This document shows, piece after piece, positions 8,516 to 47,288 of a DNA stretch of 47,288 nt (positions are counted from its first letter, which is position 1; every line of letters starts with the position of its first letter). Under the pieces are notes generated by a model. That model did not search any database. It saw only the letters and a program-made list of their open reading frames with translations, and was not told where the DNA came from. Both the position numbers and the translations under genes were made by a program. Source of the DNA: a virus. Location of the stretch: the IMG/VR virus record IMGVR_UViG_3300026554_000027, positions 1 through 47,288 of that record. One strand, given 5' to 3'.

Positions 8516-8779
8516 CTATAGCAACACTATTCCACTTGTCTTGTCTAACGGTGAAACGTTATGGTCAAGATAGGCAATCAGAGCGAGACACTCAACCTCA
8601 GAGTCGCACAGCATTCTATAGTTTACCCTGTCGCTGTTGATATACGTGTCAATCTTGCGCAAGATTTTAGGATTCAGCGCGTCGAATTGCTCGTCAGACA
8701 GATAGGCGATAGGATAATAAACTCGTCCCCTGTGCGGGTGCTGGTAGGATTCTACTTGCCAGTTCATTGTACGCTTCAT
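8516..8779 (-). CDS. hypothetical protein (87 aa)
   Basis: ATG at 8779 with a GAAGGGAG RBS. The longer track ORF start has no RBS. Confidence 0.5.
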   Translation of the reverse strand: MKRTMNWQVESYQHPHRGRVYYPIAYLSDEQFDALNPKILRKIDTYINSDRVNYRMLCDSEVECLALIAYLDHNVSPLDKTSGIVLL

Positions 8780-8825
8780 AGTGTTATCTCCCTTCATTTG
8801 CCTGCTTTGTGCAGGTCGTGGCCTA

Positions 8826-8854
8826 ACGATAGCGCGTGTCGCTTTGCCTGTCAA
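8826..8854 (-). promoter_or_regulatory. sigma-A-like promoter (TTGACA, 17-nt spacer, TATCGT)
   Basis: On the minus strand: cgtgTTGACAggcaaagcgacacgcgcTATCGT, about 50 nt upstream of ORF 8516..8779. Confidence 0.5.
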
Positions 8855-9098
8855 CACGTTCAATGCATGTTATTCCGTGCTGTTTACCGTTCGTAGCCAT
8901 GGCAACATGATAGCAAGTCTTGAGAGAGAATAGCAGGGCAAGGGATGGATCTGTGCTTTGCTCGGCTGGCTGTAATTGGCTGATGCTGGCTGTCTCTGCA
9001 TGGCAAGGATAGCATCGTTTGGTATCGTGGCTTTGCTGTTTAGCGTGCTCTGATGGACGGATCAAGCCTTGCGCGTATAAGGATAGATGCCAGGCTGA

Positions 9099-9124
9099 TG
9101 ATCGTTTGTGATCACCTGTGATCG
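9099..9124. repeat. three helically phased TGATC(A/G) hexamers within a 13-bp direct repeat (tgatcgtttgtga x2, period 20)
   Basis: TGATCG at 9099, TGATCA at 9109 and TGATCG at 9119. The palindrome GTGATCAC lies at 9108..9115. Confidence 0.8.
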
Positions 9125-9454
9125 TTTGTGAGCGGCAATCGGCAAGCTGTTTTGTGGGGGTACTGATGCAGGACAGGGCAGGTTATATGATTATTTTAAC
9201 GTGTAAACTGACAGCGGATCGAGCGGACTGGGGCGGGGGTTACCTCGGTTTCGCGCGCACAAGCTGGTACGGTACTAGCGATATTCAAATCAGCCAGACA
9301 AAAAGAACTTCTACCAGGAGGCTACGTTGGTGTTTGAGGTGCCAAATCGAGGTTGACAAGTGACATTCAAATCATACTCACAAAAAAGAGTTTACAAGTA
9401 TGCTTATTTGGCGGATGAAATAAGCACGGAAGTAAAGACGGACAAAGTATGGTG

Positions 9455-9482
9455 TTGACAACCATAAAAGTTGTGGTATAAT
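9455..9482 (+). promoter_or_regulatory. near-consensus sigma-A promoter with extended -10 (TTGACA, 16-nt spacer, TGgTATAAT)
   Basis: gtgTTGACAaccataaaagttgTGgTATAAT, read directly from the sequence. Confidence 0.7.
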
Positions 9483-9490
9483 CGCGCGAT

Positions 9491-9522
9491 CGTGCGTGCG
9501 TGTGCGCACGCGTGCGTTTTAT
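9491..9522 (+). terminator. GC-rich hairpin plus T-run (intrinsic terminator) immediately downstream of promoter 9455..9482
   Basis: 9494-9503 pairs with 9508-9517 (10 bp including G-U pairs), followed by ttttatattt. There is no T-run in the minus orientation. Confidence 0.55.
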
Positions 9523-9638
9523 ATTTATTAATTTCTTTCTTTATTTAGAAGAGTTAATTCTTTTTCTTTGCTTACTTTCTTTTTCTTATCAGAGAAACCT
9601 TTTTTCTTTCTTTATCGGAAAAGTGAAATGGAATTGGC

Positions 9639-9670
9639 AAAAATAAAAAGACCGAGTTTTTGGCTCGATC
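9639..9670 (-). terminator. intrinsic terminator ending the RHH mini-operon
   Basis: On the minus strand: GATCGAG-CCAAAAA-CTCGGTC stem-loop followed by TTTTTATTTTT. Confidence 0.65.
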
Positions 9671-9696
9671 TTTCCGGTTTGTTTGCTTTGACTTGG

Positions 9697-9924
9697 CTAC
9701 TCCTCATCGTTTTCAGTAATAATCTCGATTACATCGTCCAGCATTTCTGTTGCTTCATAGATATTGTCTAAGATTTTTGAATACCTTATTCCGTCTTTAC
9801 CTTCTTCTTCGCTTTCTGGCAGTTCGTCGAAAAGATCGGAGACGCTTTCTTCCAGAAGCTCCAAATCTAGTTTCAGATCTTCGATCAGTTTAGTAATGCG
9901 CTGAATTTCCCTTTTGATTTCCAC
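9697..9924 (-). CDS. acidic coiled-coil hypothetical protein (GTG start)
   Basis: AAGGAGG RBS 8 nt before GTG. 75 aa, E/D/L-rich. Confidence 0.55.
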   Translation of the reverse strand: MEIKREIQRITKLIEDLKLDLELLEESVSDLFDELPESEEEGKDGIRYSKILDNIYEATEMLDDVIEIITENDEE

Positions 9925-9927
9925 AAT

Positions 9928-10221
9928 TCAAACCTCCTTGTATGTCAGGCTGGAATATTTCTTGTCCAACTCTGCAATCAGCCTCTTGATTTCGTCCTGT
10001 TTCGCCATAAGTTCTTCAAGTGAATTAGATTCTGCCACGGCAAGCCTTGTCTGACGCACGCACAGGCCTGCCAAGGCGTTTCCTAGGTCGGAGTAATAAA
10101 GGAAGTCATATGCCGTTCGTTCCTTGCCTGTACGCTTGTCCACACGCTTTCCGATTTCCTTTGCCAAGATGAACTGTTTTTCGTCTGCGTCGAGGTAGTA
10201 ATTGTCTATCAGATGAATCAT
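9928..10221 (-). CDS. hypothetical protein
   Basis: 97-aa ORF. Its ATG overlaps the stop of the RHH gene (ATGA). Confidence 0.6.
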   Translation of the reverse strand: MIHLIDNYYLDADEKQFILAKEIGKRVDKRTGKERTAYDFLYYSDLGNALAGLCVRQTRLAVAESNSLEELMAKQDEIKRLIAELDKKYSSLTYKEV

Positions 10222-10349: not shown

Positions 10350-10375
10350 AGTTCACACTCCTTTCTGTGTAACTA

Positions 10376-10406
10376 CATTGTACCATGGTAAATACAATGC
10401 TGTCAA
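10376..10406 (-). promoter_or_regulatory. promoter of the RHH operon (TTGACA, 18-nt spacer, TGgTACAAT) overlapped by the inverted repeat CATTGTA-N10-TACAATG
   Basis: -35 at 10401..10406 and -10 at 10377..10382 (minus strand). The inverted repeat at 10376..10399 spans the -10 and the spacer. Confidence 0.6.
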
Positions 10407-10509
10407 TACGTCATCTTTCTTACATATTCATCACTTTATGGTGACGACAGCGTTTTCTGGTAGTGTTAGACTATACATGGCTACGTTGTTTGACGGCTAA
10501 GGAGGCTGC

Positions 10510-11274
10510 ATGGAATCAATCAAAATGCTGTGCTACGATTTCCCGGACAAAGAGTACATCACGCTACACGGACTGGCAGACACGCACATAGGCTCACCGC
10601 AATTCGAGAGGGTAAAGCTTGAAAAGCATCTTGCAAAGATCATGAGCGATCCAAATAGCTATTTGGTGCTTGCTGGCGACCTGATAGACAACGGTCTGAA
10701 GGGATCAAAGACAAATGTATATCGGCAGACGATGAGTCCTGATGAGCAGATAGACTTGGCTGGTTCGTTGTTTGAACCGTATAAGGATCGTATTCTCTGC
10801 ATGGATGATGGCAACCATGAGCGAAGAAGTGTTCTGGAAGCGGATATCAGCCCAACGAGATTGCTTGCATACAGGCTAGGATTGTCTGATAGATACCACC
10901 GAATTATGAGTTTTTTAAGGATTTCTGTCGGGCAAAGACGGAACGGACACGTGGATAGACCGGTTTATTCGGTCGCTGTGCACCACGGAGCGAGCAGTAA
11001 CGTTCACACGCAGAACAATTACGCGATCAGTTGTGGCGCAGATGTATTCATGACAGGGCACACGCACAGGCCTAGAACCGAGCCATTGGAACGATATGAG
11101 ATGGACTTGCAGCAGAAGGTTGCAAGATTGAAGCCGATTTACATGTGTGTGCTGACATCGTGGATGAGATACGGTGATTACGGCGCAGAGAAGATGTTGA
11201 AGCCAAACGGCGTGCATCCTAACTGGGTGAAGCTGTATGGTGGCGAAAGACAAGTTGAGGTAACGCAATCATGA
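10510..11274 (+). CDS. calcineurin-like metallophosphoesterase (Mre11/SbcD- or phosphatase-like)
   Basis: Motifs GLADTHIG, LAGDLIDNG, GNHE, HHG and GHTH appear in the canonical order. AAGGAGG RBS. Confidence 0.85.
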   Translation: MESIKMLCYDFPDKEYITLHGLADTHIGSPQFERVKLEKHLAKIMSDPNSYLVLAGDLIDNGLKGSKTNVYRQTMSPDEQIDLAGSLFEPYKDRILCMDDGNHERRSVLEADISPTRLLAYRLGLSDRYHRIMSFLRISVGQRRNGHVDRPVYSVAVHHGASSNVHTQNNYAISCGADVFMTGHTHRPRTEPLERYEMDLQQKVARLKPIYMCVLTSWMRYGDYGAEKMLKPNGVHPNWVKLYGGERQVEVTQS

Positions 11275-11432: not shown

Positions 11433-11548
11433 CAAGTTTACCAGGACTTTTACGCACAATTTAATAATGGCAGCAGGAAACTGTTCGCCGTTGACCGGAT
11501 GAATCCATTGACCAGCCTCTGATTAGTGATGAGCTACCAGACGAGCAG

Positions 11549-11576
11549 TTGACGGATTTTTTCGTTATGTTAATAT
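11549..11576 (+). promoter_or_regulatory. promoter (TTGACG, 16-nt spacer, TGtTAATAT)
   Basis: cagTTGACGgattttttcgttaTGtTAATAT. This is the first copy of a duplicated promoter block. Confidence 0.5.
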
Positions 11577-11596
11577 AAAAAGAAAAGGGGTTTAAT

Positions 11597-11785
11597 ATGG
11601 CATCAACGGCAAAAAGGTATGGGTTTGTTGACGTTGCAACATCCGCAAAGATTTATAAGAAATTGAAAGACACGCCTACTAGGTCGTTTGCTGGTAAAAA
11701 AGTTGCTGAATCTGTTCGGCTAACAAAGGCGCAGCGCAACGCTGGAGAATTGCCAGAACAAAACAAAAAACGCAAAAAGAAATAA
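11597..11785 (+). CDS. small basic protein (62 aa, K/R-rich C-terminus)
   Basis: AAAGGGG RBS 7 nt upstream. Flanked by the duplicated promoter blocks. Confidence 0.45.
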   Translation: MASTAKRYGFVDVATSAKIYKKLKDTPTRSFAGKKVAESVRLTKAQRNAGELPEQNKKRKKK

Positions 11786-11799
11786 CATAACAGCTACCA

Positions 11800-11828
11800 T
11801 TGACGGATTTTTTCGTTAGTGCTACAAT
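11800..11828 (+). promoter_or_regulatory. promoter (TTGACG, 17-nt spacer, TGcTACAAT)
   Basis: catTGACGgattttttcgttagTGcTACAAT. This is the second copy of the block agctacca..ttgacggattttttcgtta. Confidence 0.6.
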
Positions 11829-11834
11829 GTGGAT

Positions 11835-11928
11835 AGCCATTCACTCGCTCCTTTCGTACGTTTTTCATCGATGCACCTCCCTCCTCGCATGAGAGAGTCG
11901 GTTTCCCTCCCGGCTCTCTTTTGTTTTC
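11835..11928 (+). ncRNA. candidate small RNA (about 95 nt) between promoter 11800..11828 and terminator 11891..11930
   Basis: No plus-strand ORF with an RBS. Contains CACCUCCCUCCUC (11874..11886), complementary to GGAGG-type SD sequences. Confidence 0.35.
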
Positions 11929-11930
11929 GT
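11891..11930 (+). terminator. intrinsic terminator
   Basis: 11-bp stem (11891-11901 with 11910-11920), 8-nt loop, then ttgttttcgtttt. Confidence 0.7.
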
Positions 11931-11934
11931 TTTA

Positions 11935-11943
11935 TGGTATAAT
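11935..11943 (+). promoter_or_regulatory. extended -10 element TGgTATAAT (weak or no -35)
   Basis: Same TGgTATAAT as at 9474..9482. The -35 position falls in the terminator arm. Confidence 0.35.
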
Positions 11944-11949
11944 GTTGTT

Positions 11950-12012
11950 GCGAATTGCGGAATATCTCTGCGGAGACTTCCTGAAAGAGTCGGATGCGTC
12001 TGGCTCTTTTAC
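11950..12012 (+). ncRNA. second candidate small RNA (about 60 nt)
   Basis: Bounded by the extended -10 at 11935..11943 and terminator 11984..12015. No ORF. Confidence 0.25.
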
Positions 12013-39642: not shown

Positions 39643-39939
39643 TCATTCCTCCGAGTCTGCGAAAAATCTGTCGTACCAAATCTCATTATACAAGTCAGGG
39701 TAGTGTTGCATAAAGTTTTCTAGTTCTGGCATGAATGAGTTACTGCACATTCTGTTGATTTCATCCATGAACTCATGGCCTTGCCTGGGATCACCACCAT
39801 GAAAGAACTCGTTGCGTTTGTGTCTCAATTCTACCAGAAACGCACAGCGTTGTGCCAACCACTTGATATTATCTTTCGGCCAAACGGACATGGGAAGAGG
39901 GAACATTGCGACTGCTGATGTGTATTGATAGTCTTTCAC
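39643..39939 (-). CDS. hypothetical protein (GTG start)
   Basis: GGAAGGAG RBS 6 nt before GTG. GTGA coupling. Confidence 0.55.
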   Translation of the reverse strand: MKDYQYTSAVAMFPLPMSVWPKDNIKWLAQRCAFLVELRHKRNEFFHGGDPRQGHEFMDEINRMCSNSFMPELENFMQHYPDLYNEIWYDRFFADSEE

Positions 39940-40994
39940 ATAATTCTCCTTCCGTCATTGAATATGGACGTTTGCTCCTGCTTTGGCTTTTGCTGTTTAG
40001 GATTGTTCTTCTCCCACGTCCTGACGGCGGCTTTCCAGTCTTGCATCTTTGTCTTACCAACCATCCAGCCACGTGCCTCATAGTAGTCAAGCCAATACGA
40101 AGGATCAATGCCGTTATCTCGCTGGATGCAATAAGCCCGAACTTCATCTAACGTTGGTTTAGTGAACGTTGTCCTTGCTCGCCGTGGTGAAATACTCTTT
40201 TCTTCAACCACTTGTTGGTTGATAATATCTTTCTCTAACTCTGTCTCTTTCTCTAACTCTATCTCTATATACTGTTTCGAAGCGTTTCTGTAACGTTTCA
40301 TCATCATGTCATCAAAACCAACGTTGTCTAAAATGTGCTGTTCTGGCAAAATCCCTAAAACCTTGTTTTTACTTTTGTTGTGAAGTGATGTGTGGCAAGA
40401 TGAACATAATGTTACAAGGTTTTCAATTCTAATTGTGTCATCATTGTTTGCATCGTACGGGATTATGTGATGCACCATAAGTTTTGTTTCTGCTCCACAT
40501 CTCTTGCAAACAAACCCATCTCTTTCTAAAACCTTATAATAAAACCCTCCATATCTTTTGTTGTTTATATGTGCTTCAATAAAATTTTGTGTTCTTTCAG
40601 AAAGAAGTTTTTGCTTTTCTCTGAACTTCTCAACTCTTTCTGTTGAGTTTTTAGAAGAACTTCCAAGCATTTTATCAACTTCGTTCATGTAAATTGTTTC
40701 GTCATCCATTATGTCAATCAAATTTAGTTTTGAAAAAATATCAAGAGCCTGTCTTACAACCTTGACATCTGTATTTGTTATTGTTGAAAGCATTTCTTCG
40801 TTGTATGGAAGCGAGTCGTTAAACCGTAAGCTTCCGTTGTTTTCTATGCTTTCCAAAAGAAGTTTAAGATAAAACAAAACAAAATCTTTTCCACTGGGCA
40901 TTGACTCTATCAGAACAATATCTTTTCTTTTGAAAAAGTCGTTCTTTAACTTTAACCAGTAGTATCTTCTGTTATCCGCTTTGTTCTGTTCCAT
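39936..40994 (-). CDS. replisome organiser (Phage_rep_org_N-like) with an embedded HNH nuclease domain
   Basis: The N-terminus RRYYWLKLKNDFF...FVLFYLKLLL is typical of the replisome-organiser N domain. The middle segment CKRCG...HHIIP...ENLVTLCSSCHTSLHN is HNH. The C-terminal segment TLDEVRAYC...WLDYYEARGW..GKTKMQDWKAAVRTWEKN is typical of organiser/DnaD-like tails. Confidence 0.8.
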   Translation of the reverse strand: MEQNKADNRRYYWLKLKNDFFKRKDIVLIESMPSGKDFVLFYLKLLLESIENNGSLRFNDSLPYNEEMLSTITNTDVKVVRQALDIFSKLNLIDIMDDETIYMNEVDKMLGSSSKNSTERVEKFREKQKLLSERTQNFIEAHINNKRYGGFYYKVLERDGFVCKRCGAETKLMVHHIIPYDANNDDTIRIENLVTLCSSCHTSLHNKSKNKVLGILPEQHILDNVGFDDMMMKRYRNASKQYIEIELEKETELEKDIINQQVVEEKSISPRRARTTFTKPTLDEVRAYCIQRDNGIDPSYWLDYYEARGWMVGKTKMQDWKAAVRTWEKNNPKQQKPKQEQTSIFNDGRRIM

Positions 40995-47255: not shown

Positions 47256-47279
47256 TTCCGAATTGGTCACGATTGCGTC
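47256..47279 (-). repeat. 24-nt intercistronic element, copy E (GACGCAATCGTGACCAATTCGGAA)
   Basis: Spans the circular junction region. Upstream of the SMC-like ATPase gene. Confidence 0.8.
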
Positions 47280-47288
47280 ATAACTGAG

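Follow-up and report, generated by a model that had tools for sequence, protein, structure and literature searches.

What does a stretch of 917 nt without genes do in the early arm of a phage genome? The question is raised by positions 8780..9696 of IMG/VR record IMGVR_UViG_3300026554_000027, analysed here at its full length of 47,288 nt (the window). This gap lies between genes 8516..8779 and 9697..9924, both on the minus strand. A first-pass annotation, made from the letters of the sequence, had read most of it (8864-9640) as a large non-coding RNA, a replication origin or a packaging site. We favour a different answer and hold it with middling confidence: the gap would be a modular non-coding control region, made up of an early small RNA gene and, next to it, a spacer that controls promoters, and not a single RNA. 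The non-coding status of the gap, the quality and conservation of its main promoter, the conservation of the RNA cassette and the modularity of the locus are direct observations.

The window is a complete phage genome in a circular assembly, with 47,264 unique bases. Its two ends (1-24 and 47265-47288) overlap by 24 identical nucleotides, as is typical when a circular or terminally redundant genome is assembled. A second, independent contig of 47,174 nt is almost identical but permuted, with its end at window position 9944. The genome encodes a large terminase, a portal, a holin and an endolysin (GH25 + M15); a replication module at 38.5-47.2 kb holds a Phage_rep_org_N replisome organiser, a DnaB-type helicase, a primase zinc ribbon and RecT. 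No tRNA or tmRNA was found. No integrase was found either among the window proteins scanned, and the phage is apparently virulent and of Firmicutes type; it should therefore have no lysogeny switch.

The closest cultured relatives, which infect Clostridium, Enterococcus, Streptococcus and other Firmicutes, share no more than 38% identity in the large terminase. Neither the region nor the phage group had a match in INPHARED (blastn and tblastn), the JGI metagenome collection or GTDB genomes, and IMG/VR, queried with three proteins and three DNA patterns, returned a single match, a TerL contig cut before the region. Because these searches came up empty, the comparison is restricted to a narrow group of relatives. 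Those compared here, designated L with a number, are Logan, ENA and JGI contigs retrieved through exact-protein look-ups, 76-100% identical to the window. They bear out the expectation that the region is conserved in related phages.

The gap is truly non-coding, as judged from the open reading frame (ORF) list, codon scores, substitution pattern and homology searches. None of its frames has a positive codon score. Mismatches to L005, a relative ~85% identical to the window that served as reference for the periodicity test, are distributed over the three codon phases as 22/30/27 in 8864-9450 and are non-periodic, against 12/1/5, 18/5/2 and 10/3/50 in flanking genes. The ten stop-free frames of the gap matched no PHROGs or Pfam family, tblastn of gap frames against phages found nothing, and the longest frame (119-aa) had 0 matches in an exhaustive phmmer search of 1.84 billion representative proteins. 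A degraded protein gene is ruled out by the codon model, mismatch periodicity, PHROGs and Pfam, tblastn and phmmer. The first-pass annotation was thus right to call the stretch ORF-free, and right to doubt the two listed frames 8823..9065 and 9118..9363, neither of which is preserved in L005.

The composition of the gap is unusual in more than one way. The strong G+T skew described earlier is real: the G+T fraction of the genome peaks, at 0.61 against a mean of 0.507 (standard deviation 0.036), in the 400-nt segments that begin at 8801 and 8851 and together span 8801-9250, and the base counts reported for 8941..9060 (G 42, T 40, C 22, A 16) are exact. It is not uniform, however, and three composition domains can be distinguished: a G-rich one at 8864-9260 (GC 0.52, GC skew +0.27), a purine-rich one at 9261-9454, where G+T is just 0.47, and one at 9518-9612 with 60% T and a GC of 0.20. 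G-runs and several of the reported repeats are present, but some of the reiterated words are common throughout the genome, CTTTGCT occurring 20 times and GGCAAGG 14 times. The three copies of AGCGG, considered as a cluster of Chi sites, were rejected as such, their copies not being conserved in relatives.

The first-pass positions of the minus-strand promoter (8854..8826) and of the terminator (9645..9675) are correct. The same does not hold for the two gene arms, said to diverge here: both flanking genes are on the minus strand, and the arms diverge at ~10350-10510, between promoter 10406(-) and gene 10510(+). Of the proposed divergence of early transcription, what stays is solely that two promoters within the gap face away from each other.

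Searches for RNA structure were negative over most of the gap. Rfam gave 0 matches in the whole window at gathering thresholds, and just four chance-level matches in 8700-9750 at E up to 10; with the models for ROOL, GOLLD, HEARO and OLE included, the best E in the region was 1.5. Folding of 8864-9454 against dinucleotide shuffles revealed no excess stability (z = -0.57 on the plus and -0.02 on the minus strand). In a sliding 120-nt scan no plus-strand segment of 8820-9340 fell under z = -1, and significant values were obtained just in segments containing two palindromes. An RNAalifold consensus of four relatives over 430 columns was weak, at -18 and -14 kcal/mol on the two strands. The highest plus-strand promoter score left of 9455 does not exceed 14.5 of 19.5, and no gap site other than 9455 reaches the list of those at 15.5.

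It is at the right end of the gap (9455-9685) that an RNA gene is suggested. The plus-strand promoter at 9455..9482, TTGACA-16-TGgTATAAT, has 12/12 consensus matches plus the TG and ranks first in the genome among sigma-A-type sites, with a score of 19.0 of a possible 19.5. The second-best, at 10406 (-), drives a converging mini-operon of RHH, 97-aa and 75-aa genes. In L012 the -35 and the extended -10 (TGTGGTATAAT) are intact, and five spacer bases and the upstream flank differ. The predicted non-coding transcript (9489..9685, plus strand), whose ends are deduced from promoter and terminator, would measure ~197 nt here, in a 'short' form, and ~240 nt in the 'long' form of relatives.

Its first feature is a 5' GC hairpin at 9491..9517, found by folding and by a run search; the hairpin is a 27-nt perfectly alternating purine/pyrimidine run, the longest of the genome (the runner-up has 14 nt), and is followed by TTTTATATTT. 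Next comes, on the same strand, the T-rich domain at 9518..9612, a T/C-rich tract with six TTTCTTT motifs; positions 9521-9620 are the lowest-GC 100 nt of the genome. Indels of 21 nt and 23 nt in this tract distinguish the short form from the long one, which carries two insertions, both purine-rich; an existing GA/CU hairpin is extended by one of them. The terminator at 9645..9675 serves both the converging minus-strand mini-operon and the predicted plus-strand transcript, the former far better (z = -4.07) than the latter (z = -1.36).

At aligned positions the transcript region has 95.8-96.9% identity with its counterparts in L012, L005 and L015. Against L012, the most diverged relative, identity is 95.8% in the cassette, 88.4% in the 97-aa gene, ~70% in the upstream module and 27%, at the amino-acid level, in the 75/77-aa protein. 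No ORF is preserved across the cassette variants. Relatives have two substitutions in the hairpin, both transitions, one changing G-C to G-U and the other lying in the loop; these keep the pairing, and the insertion of the long form extends a hairpin, which is compatible with a function as RNA. Of the traits of a stand-alone small RNA (sRNA) gene, the locus shows a conserved promoter of its own, the absence of a conserved ORF and a nucleotide conservation above that of its neighbours. The earlier suggestion of a large non-coding RNA survives to the extent that the region seems to hold an RNA gene; this gene would be small (~190-240 nt), T/C-rich and at the right end.

The left end of the gap belongs to another module (8826-9438). 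It starts with the leftward early promoter P_L (8826..8854, minus strand), TTGACA-17-TATCGT, recognised by its motif and from relatives, some of which have TAACGT instead. In six relatives its -35 hexamer is invariant, its -10 reads TAWCGT and its spacer is variable. An invariant block is found at 8907..8936, where TTGAGAGAGAATAGCA and TGATAGC are unchanged across six sequences; with a promoter scan score of 14 on the minus strand, this block may be a second leftward promoter of the extended -10 type (CTGCTA-18-TGcTATCAT). The alignments then place at 8951..9118 a segment of 168 nt that has no counterpart in L019 and L022. This segment includes the stretch with the strongest G+T skew, and also a block 100% conserved with L005.

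Repeats identified by repeat search and alignments follow on the plus strand. GCTGGCTGT is present twice with 20-nt spacing at 8965..8993, and both of its CTGGCTG copies are changed together, to CTGTCTG, in L005 and L018. A TGATC array with a 10-nt phase, TGATCGTTTG / TGATCACCTG / TGATCGTTTG / TGA, occupies 9099..9131 and includes the exact 13-mer TGATCGTTTGTGA twice at 20-nt spacing; it has one unit fewer in L018 and L019, and L012 carries a different 12-mer, also in two copies, at the same place and with the same 20-nt spacing. A 31-nt repeat (ATTCAAATC..ACAAAAAGA) has a first copy at 9274..9304, with 0.04 expected by chance, and a second, found by repeat search, at 9356..9386; its copy number varies from 1 to 3 among relatives. 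Both the 13-mer pair and the 31-nt pair are above chance and are found nowhere else in the genome.

The remaining landmarks are a conserved GC-rich block at 9226..9279, kept in all relatives including L012 and holding GGGGCGGGGG at 9230-9239, and a palindrome, TGCTTATTT-N8-AAATAAGCA, at 9401..9426 (z = -3.3 on the plus and -4.9 on the minus strand). The palindrome forms the right boundary of the left module, ~75 nt upstream of the predicted transcription start. Its arms are retained in L012 and L018, with loop and flanks altered. A Type III (ToxI-like) antitoxin repeat RNA was also considered for the 31-nt repeats, whose period is 36 nt in L005, and rejected: they lie upstream of the only strong promoter and have no Rfam match.

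Relatives exchange the two ends of the gap separately. L018 keeps 8772-9438 at ~80%, with the 75-aa gene and the CU-rich cassette replaced by a basic 78-aa gene and an unrelated purine-rich cassette; the latter has its own TATAAT box and terminator, a GC of ~0.36 and no 5' hairpin. In L012 the cassette is kept and the left module has diverged, and L019 and L022 are without 8951-9118 of the window. A mosaic boundary lies directly past P_L, from 8784 leftwards, where the first gene driven by this promoter differs between phages: it encodes an 87-aa protein in the window, an unrelated 86-aa protein in L005 (3005-3265) and a 124-aa protein in L018 (4489-4863). The left deletion, the cassette swap and the exchanged P_L gene together point to two independent modules between exchangeable genes.

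From this arrangement we infer the production of an RNA, its ends and each functional step that follows. Module 2 (9455-9685) would be an exchangeable cassette for a small non-coding RNA. Host RNA polymerase would fire from the strongest promoter of the genome at ~9489, and the transcript would open with the stable GC hairpin; such 5' hairpins guard Firmicutes RNAs against 5'-end-dependent decay. It would then cross the UUUCUUU repeats and end, probably leakily, at the terminator common to the RHH/97-aa/75-aa mini-operon. The exposed pyrimidine repeats would most likely be the active part of this abundant immediate-early RNA, either pairing with purine-rich RNA or titrating a factor. As its 3' end and that of the mini-operon mRNA would lie in one shared terminator hairpin and so be complementary, it may double as an antisense partner of that mRNA, overlapping it at the 3' end.

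The left module would consist of P_L and ~550 nt of upstream DNA in which no promoter is identified, G-rich on the plus strand. Its phased repeats, 31-nt repeat and palindrome may be sites for phage or host DNA-binding proteins, a reading that the concerted change of repeat copies fits. Such proteins would control both promoters that point away from the module, and much of the DNA in between would be tolerant spacer.

The cassette RNA would then be a new, unclassified phage small-RNA gene with its intergenic control region, of a known general kind. RoxS/RsaE-type C-rich sRNAs of Firmicutes are small regulatory RNAs with pyrimidine-rich pairing regions. The cassette resembles them in being a promoter-to-terminator unit of ~200 nt without an ORF, with repeated single-stranded pyrimidine motifs and high nucleotide conservation; it differs in having no Rfam match, UUUCUUU instead of CCCC, and no enriched complementarity to phage ribosome-binding sites. 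Lambda oop and P22 sar are convergent antisense RNAs of phage control regions, and the type I toxin-antitoxin pairs of Firmicutes share a bidirectional terminator. Here, too, a short RNA from a strong promoter would converge on an early operon and share its terminator. Unlike in those systems, the two RNAs would overlap in the terminator alone unless the plus-strand transcript reads through, and there is neither a conserved toxin-like ORF nor a lysogeny switch.

The catalogue of small RNAs in virulent Firmicutes phages is poor, and the cassette is a concrete candidate for experiments: it is better conserved than the neighbouring genes, has the best promoter of the genome and belongs to no Rfam family. 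Its exchange beside a hypervariable early gene is the usual pattern of host-takeover or counter-defence functions.

Several points weigh against the small-RNA reading. Both the transcript and the positions of its ends are predicted. Just past the start, a hairpin and T-run resemble a terminator and could limit the product to ~30 nt, and the terminator further on is weak in the plus direction (z = -1.36). Six full-length copies are nearly invariant, so that the covariation test (covariation term of -0.22 kcal/mol) is powerless; because near-invariant columns leave it so, the identity of the cassettes may reflect recent exchange instead of purifying selection. The pyrimidine repeats have no excess complementarity to phage ribosome-binding regions (-20.5 vs -21.7 kcal/mol for shuffled sequences). 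The replacement in L018 is purine-rich on the same strand, which would suit a strand-independent property of the DNA, namely a purine/pyrimidine tract, no less than a role as RNA. As to the left module, neutral slippage of tandem repeats could equally yield the concerted and copy-number changes. The 97-aa protein has no NCBIfam or PDB match, and its low-confidence AlphaFold model (pLDDT 54) is uninformative.

The main rival to the small-RNA reading is a transcription-activated replication origin, which we consider a live alternative, if an unlikely one. An initiator would bind the phased repeats, the promoter would fire into easily melted DNA, and a short untranslated transcript would activate or prime initiation. 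The layout of a promoter and an AT-rich tract parallels that of T7 and T4 origins. The region is indeed non-coding, repeat-bearing and conserved, and the most AT-rich 100 nt of the genome (9521-9620) lie directly downstream of its strongest promoter and close to the phased repeats. Motifs prone to non-B-DNA are clustered there: the 27-nt alternating run, palindromes and the purine/pyrimidine tract. The adjacent 97-aa protein matches phrog_154, 'replication initiation protein', with E = 3.5e-10, and the opposite strand sense of the tract in L018 is consistent with a property at the DNA level.

A possible precedent is found in Ceduovirus (c2-type) phages, whose origins are non-coding regions flanked by early promoters and support plasmid replication (PMC7150918). 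In lactococcal phage c2, PE1 yields a non-coding transcript, PE1-T, thought to be crucial for initiation (PMC7150918). The gap shares with the c2 origin its place in a non-coding early-region stretch of a virulent Firmicutes siphophage, with early promoters at its bounds, and a promoter followed by neither ORF nor ribosome-binding site, from which a short untranslated transcript is predicted. Both also occur as distinct, non-recombining sequence types between related phages, here the CU-rich and purine-rich cassettes. There is, however, no sequence similarity between them. The c2 origin sits between divergent early and late gene blocks, a location that does not apply to the gap, which has minus-strand genes on both sides and belongs to the early arm, with the divergence point ~0.7 kb away. 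The spacer is bounded by promoters at 8854(-) and 9455(+), but these diverge, pointing away from each other. Phage c2 is not known to have a replisome-organiser and helicase module; the window phage has one elsewhere in its genome. If the gap were an origin, the c2-type mechanism would extend to an unrelated phage group that encodes a replisome organiser.

Other observations speak against an origin at this place. DnaA boxes with up to one mismatch are absent from 8700-9750, and the lone site with two mismatches is the -35 hexamer. No second copy of the repeat motifs was found elsewhere in the genome in the style of SPP1 oriL/oriR. The phased repeats (10/20 nt) and the AT-rich tract are ~390 nt apart, and the repeat array, variable in copy number, is partly dispensable, with 168 nt of the repeat module missing in some relatives. 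The cassette itself is replaceable, by a sequence in L018 that has a GC of ~0.36 and lacks the hairpin. A pyrimidine-rich RNA gives weak RNA-DNA hybrids, which would be unfavourable for a primer R-loop. Moreover, origins of this phage type are often found inside the replisome-organiser gene. That gene (39936-40994, minus strand), ~15 kb off around the circle, has an AT-rich island (~40510-40650) and an 18-nt tandem repeat (40228-40263) of its own and is a competing origin candidate; it also has an HNH endonuclease domain in mid-gene.

A second alternative concerns the left module: ~8864-9400 could have no function of its own and be a tolerated spacer, with repeats driven by slippage and conserved through close kinship. 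The module evolves faster than the flanking genes (74-88% identity per 50 nt against 90-98%), transitions and transversions are about equal (42 to 37), the 168-nt deletion and the changes in repeat copy number are tolerated, and no structure signal is seen. We nevertheless find this rather improbable. Some 600 nt are kept in every relative that spans the region, even where both neighbouring units have been exchanged; islands at 8920-8935 and 9226-9279 and the arms of the 9401-9426 palindrome are invariant; and L012 retains a two-copy, 20-nt-spaced repeat at the same location with a different sequence.

The small-RNA reading can be carried further, in a speculative form to which we give a low probability. 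The lineage would carry exchangeable immediate-early RNA cassettes (CU-repeat in short and long forms, or purine-rich) at a fixed site beside a fast-evolving early gene. Together with a C-rich, anti-Shine-Dalgarno-like unit at ~11.8 kb, described below, these would form an undescribed class of host-takeover or counter-defence RNAs, for instance decoys for a ribosome-associated, RNA-binding or defence factor. All of these would be driven by the strongest host-type promoters of the genome.

A packaging signal (pac or cos) or a physical genome terminus is improbable. Its appeal comes from ten independent relative contigs that end within 9320-9614, including one of 48.8 kb ending at ~9545, and from the large terminase gene, 3.5 kb away. 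The ten contigs (L003, L004, L006-L011, L013 and L014) break in or just before the T/C-rich tract, and in two cases a pair of contigs assembled from different samples stops at one and the same position (9435 and 9570). As a whole, however, the ends scatter over ~300 nt and not at one position, and the breaks are probably due to failed assembly at a low-complexity tract in two length forms, which by itself breaks assembly graphs. The assemblies of the window, L002, L005, L018, L019 and L022 run straight through; the circle of the window closes elsewhere, at its 24-nt overlap, and the other full-length contig ends at 9944. A cos site is more usually found beside the terminase gene with an HNH endonuclease, and this genome has an HNH endonuclease and a separate non-coding stretch directly beside its terminase gene.

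We have equally little reason to believe that the cassette encodes a small protein, for which two ORFs open in the window come into question: a 47-aa hydrophobic one at 9629..9771, type I toxin-like and converging with the mini-operon, and one with a GTG start at 9500..9646. The predicted peptide of 9629..9771 is charged at its N-terminus and includes a membrane-like segment, convergent RNAs that share a terminator recall the type I toxin-antitoxin loci of Firmicutes, and in L012 one nucleotide is deleted and, five codons further on, one is inserted. Yet both codon scores are negative (-0.017 and -0.047), no good ribosome-binding site is present, and the pyrimidine tract is stop-free through its composition alone. 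The 9500 frame is stopped in L015, probably likewise in L003, L010 and L011, which have TAG at the same position, and it shifts between the short and long forms. The 9629 ORF crosses the terminator hairpin and for half of its length is antisense to a gene under selection; its product in L012 is not hydrophobic, and no family matches were found. A type I toxin-antitoxin locus was rejected on the same grounds: the 9629..9771 product is not conserved in L012, crosses the terminator and has a negative codon score.

Least probable of all, to the point of being almost discarded, is the single large ROOL/GOLLD-type RNA that the first-pass annotation had proposed as a G/U-rich, ornate plus-strand transcript of 8864-9640: the gap shares with ROOL, GOLLD and other large ornate RNAs of Firmicutes phages and prophages a long, ORF-free and conserved stretch, 8864-9260 is a relatively GC-rich island of G over C within a lower-GC genome, and a local hairpin at ~9215-9250 has a few two-sided changes among four sequences, but no covariance model matches it at gathering score, no promoter stands upstream, folding and consensus are weak on both strands, relatives lack 168 nt, change repeat copy numbers and swap modules, and the strongest promoter lies within the supposed RNA and is directed outward. 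A striking composition skew in an ORF-free stretch does not suffice for calling a large ornate RNA.

The surroundings of the gap are variable as well. The last gene of the mini-operon (9697-9924, minus strand), expressed from the second-strongest promoter, is hypervariable and encodes a very acidic 75-aa protein (26/75 D or E) predicted to be helical. Its counterpart in L012 (382-615) is an acidic 77-aa protein with 27% identity, and the one in L018 (3360-3596) an unrelated, basic protein of 78 aa. Such variability would be the expected pattern of a host-takeover or counter-defence gene. At the head of the plus-strand arm, L019, L022 and L024 seem to lack the 254-aa metallophosphatase gene and have a 59-aa gene instead (L019 2785-3500 against window 10510-11274).

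A second gene-poor stretch, 11433-12008, holds further small units of promoter and terminator and has no Rfam match. The promoter scan finds TTGACG-17-TGcTACAAT at 11800-11828, from which an RNA of ~95 nt is predicted, up to a terminator at 11891-11920. This RNA would carry CACCUCCCUCCUC, which is anti-Shine-Dalgarno-like, and UUUCCCUCCC in the terminator loop. An extended -10, TGGTATAAT, at 11937-11945 precedes a unit of ~65 nt with a terminator at 11982-12011. The unit at ~11800-11930 suggests that the phage may carry several such RNAs. The promoter sequence TTGACGGATTTTTTCGTTA is present twice, at 11549 and 11800, on either side of a 232-nt insertion (11568-11799) that is absent from L003, L006 and L008. 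The insertion contains a 62-aa ORF (11598-11786) with its own ribosome-binding site, which looks like a small gene inserted via recombination between the duplicated promoters.

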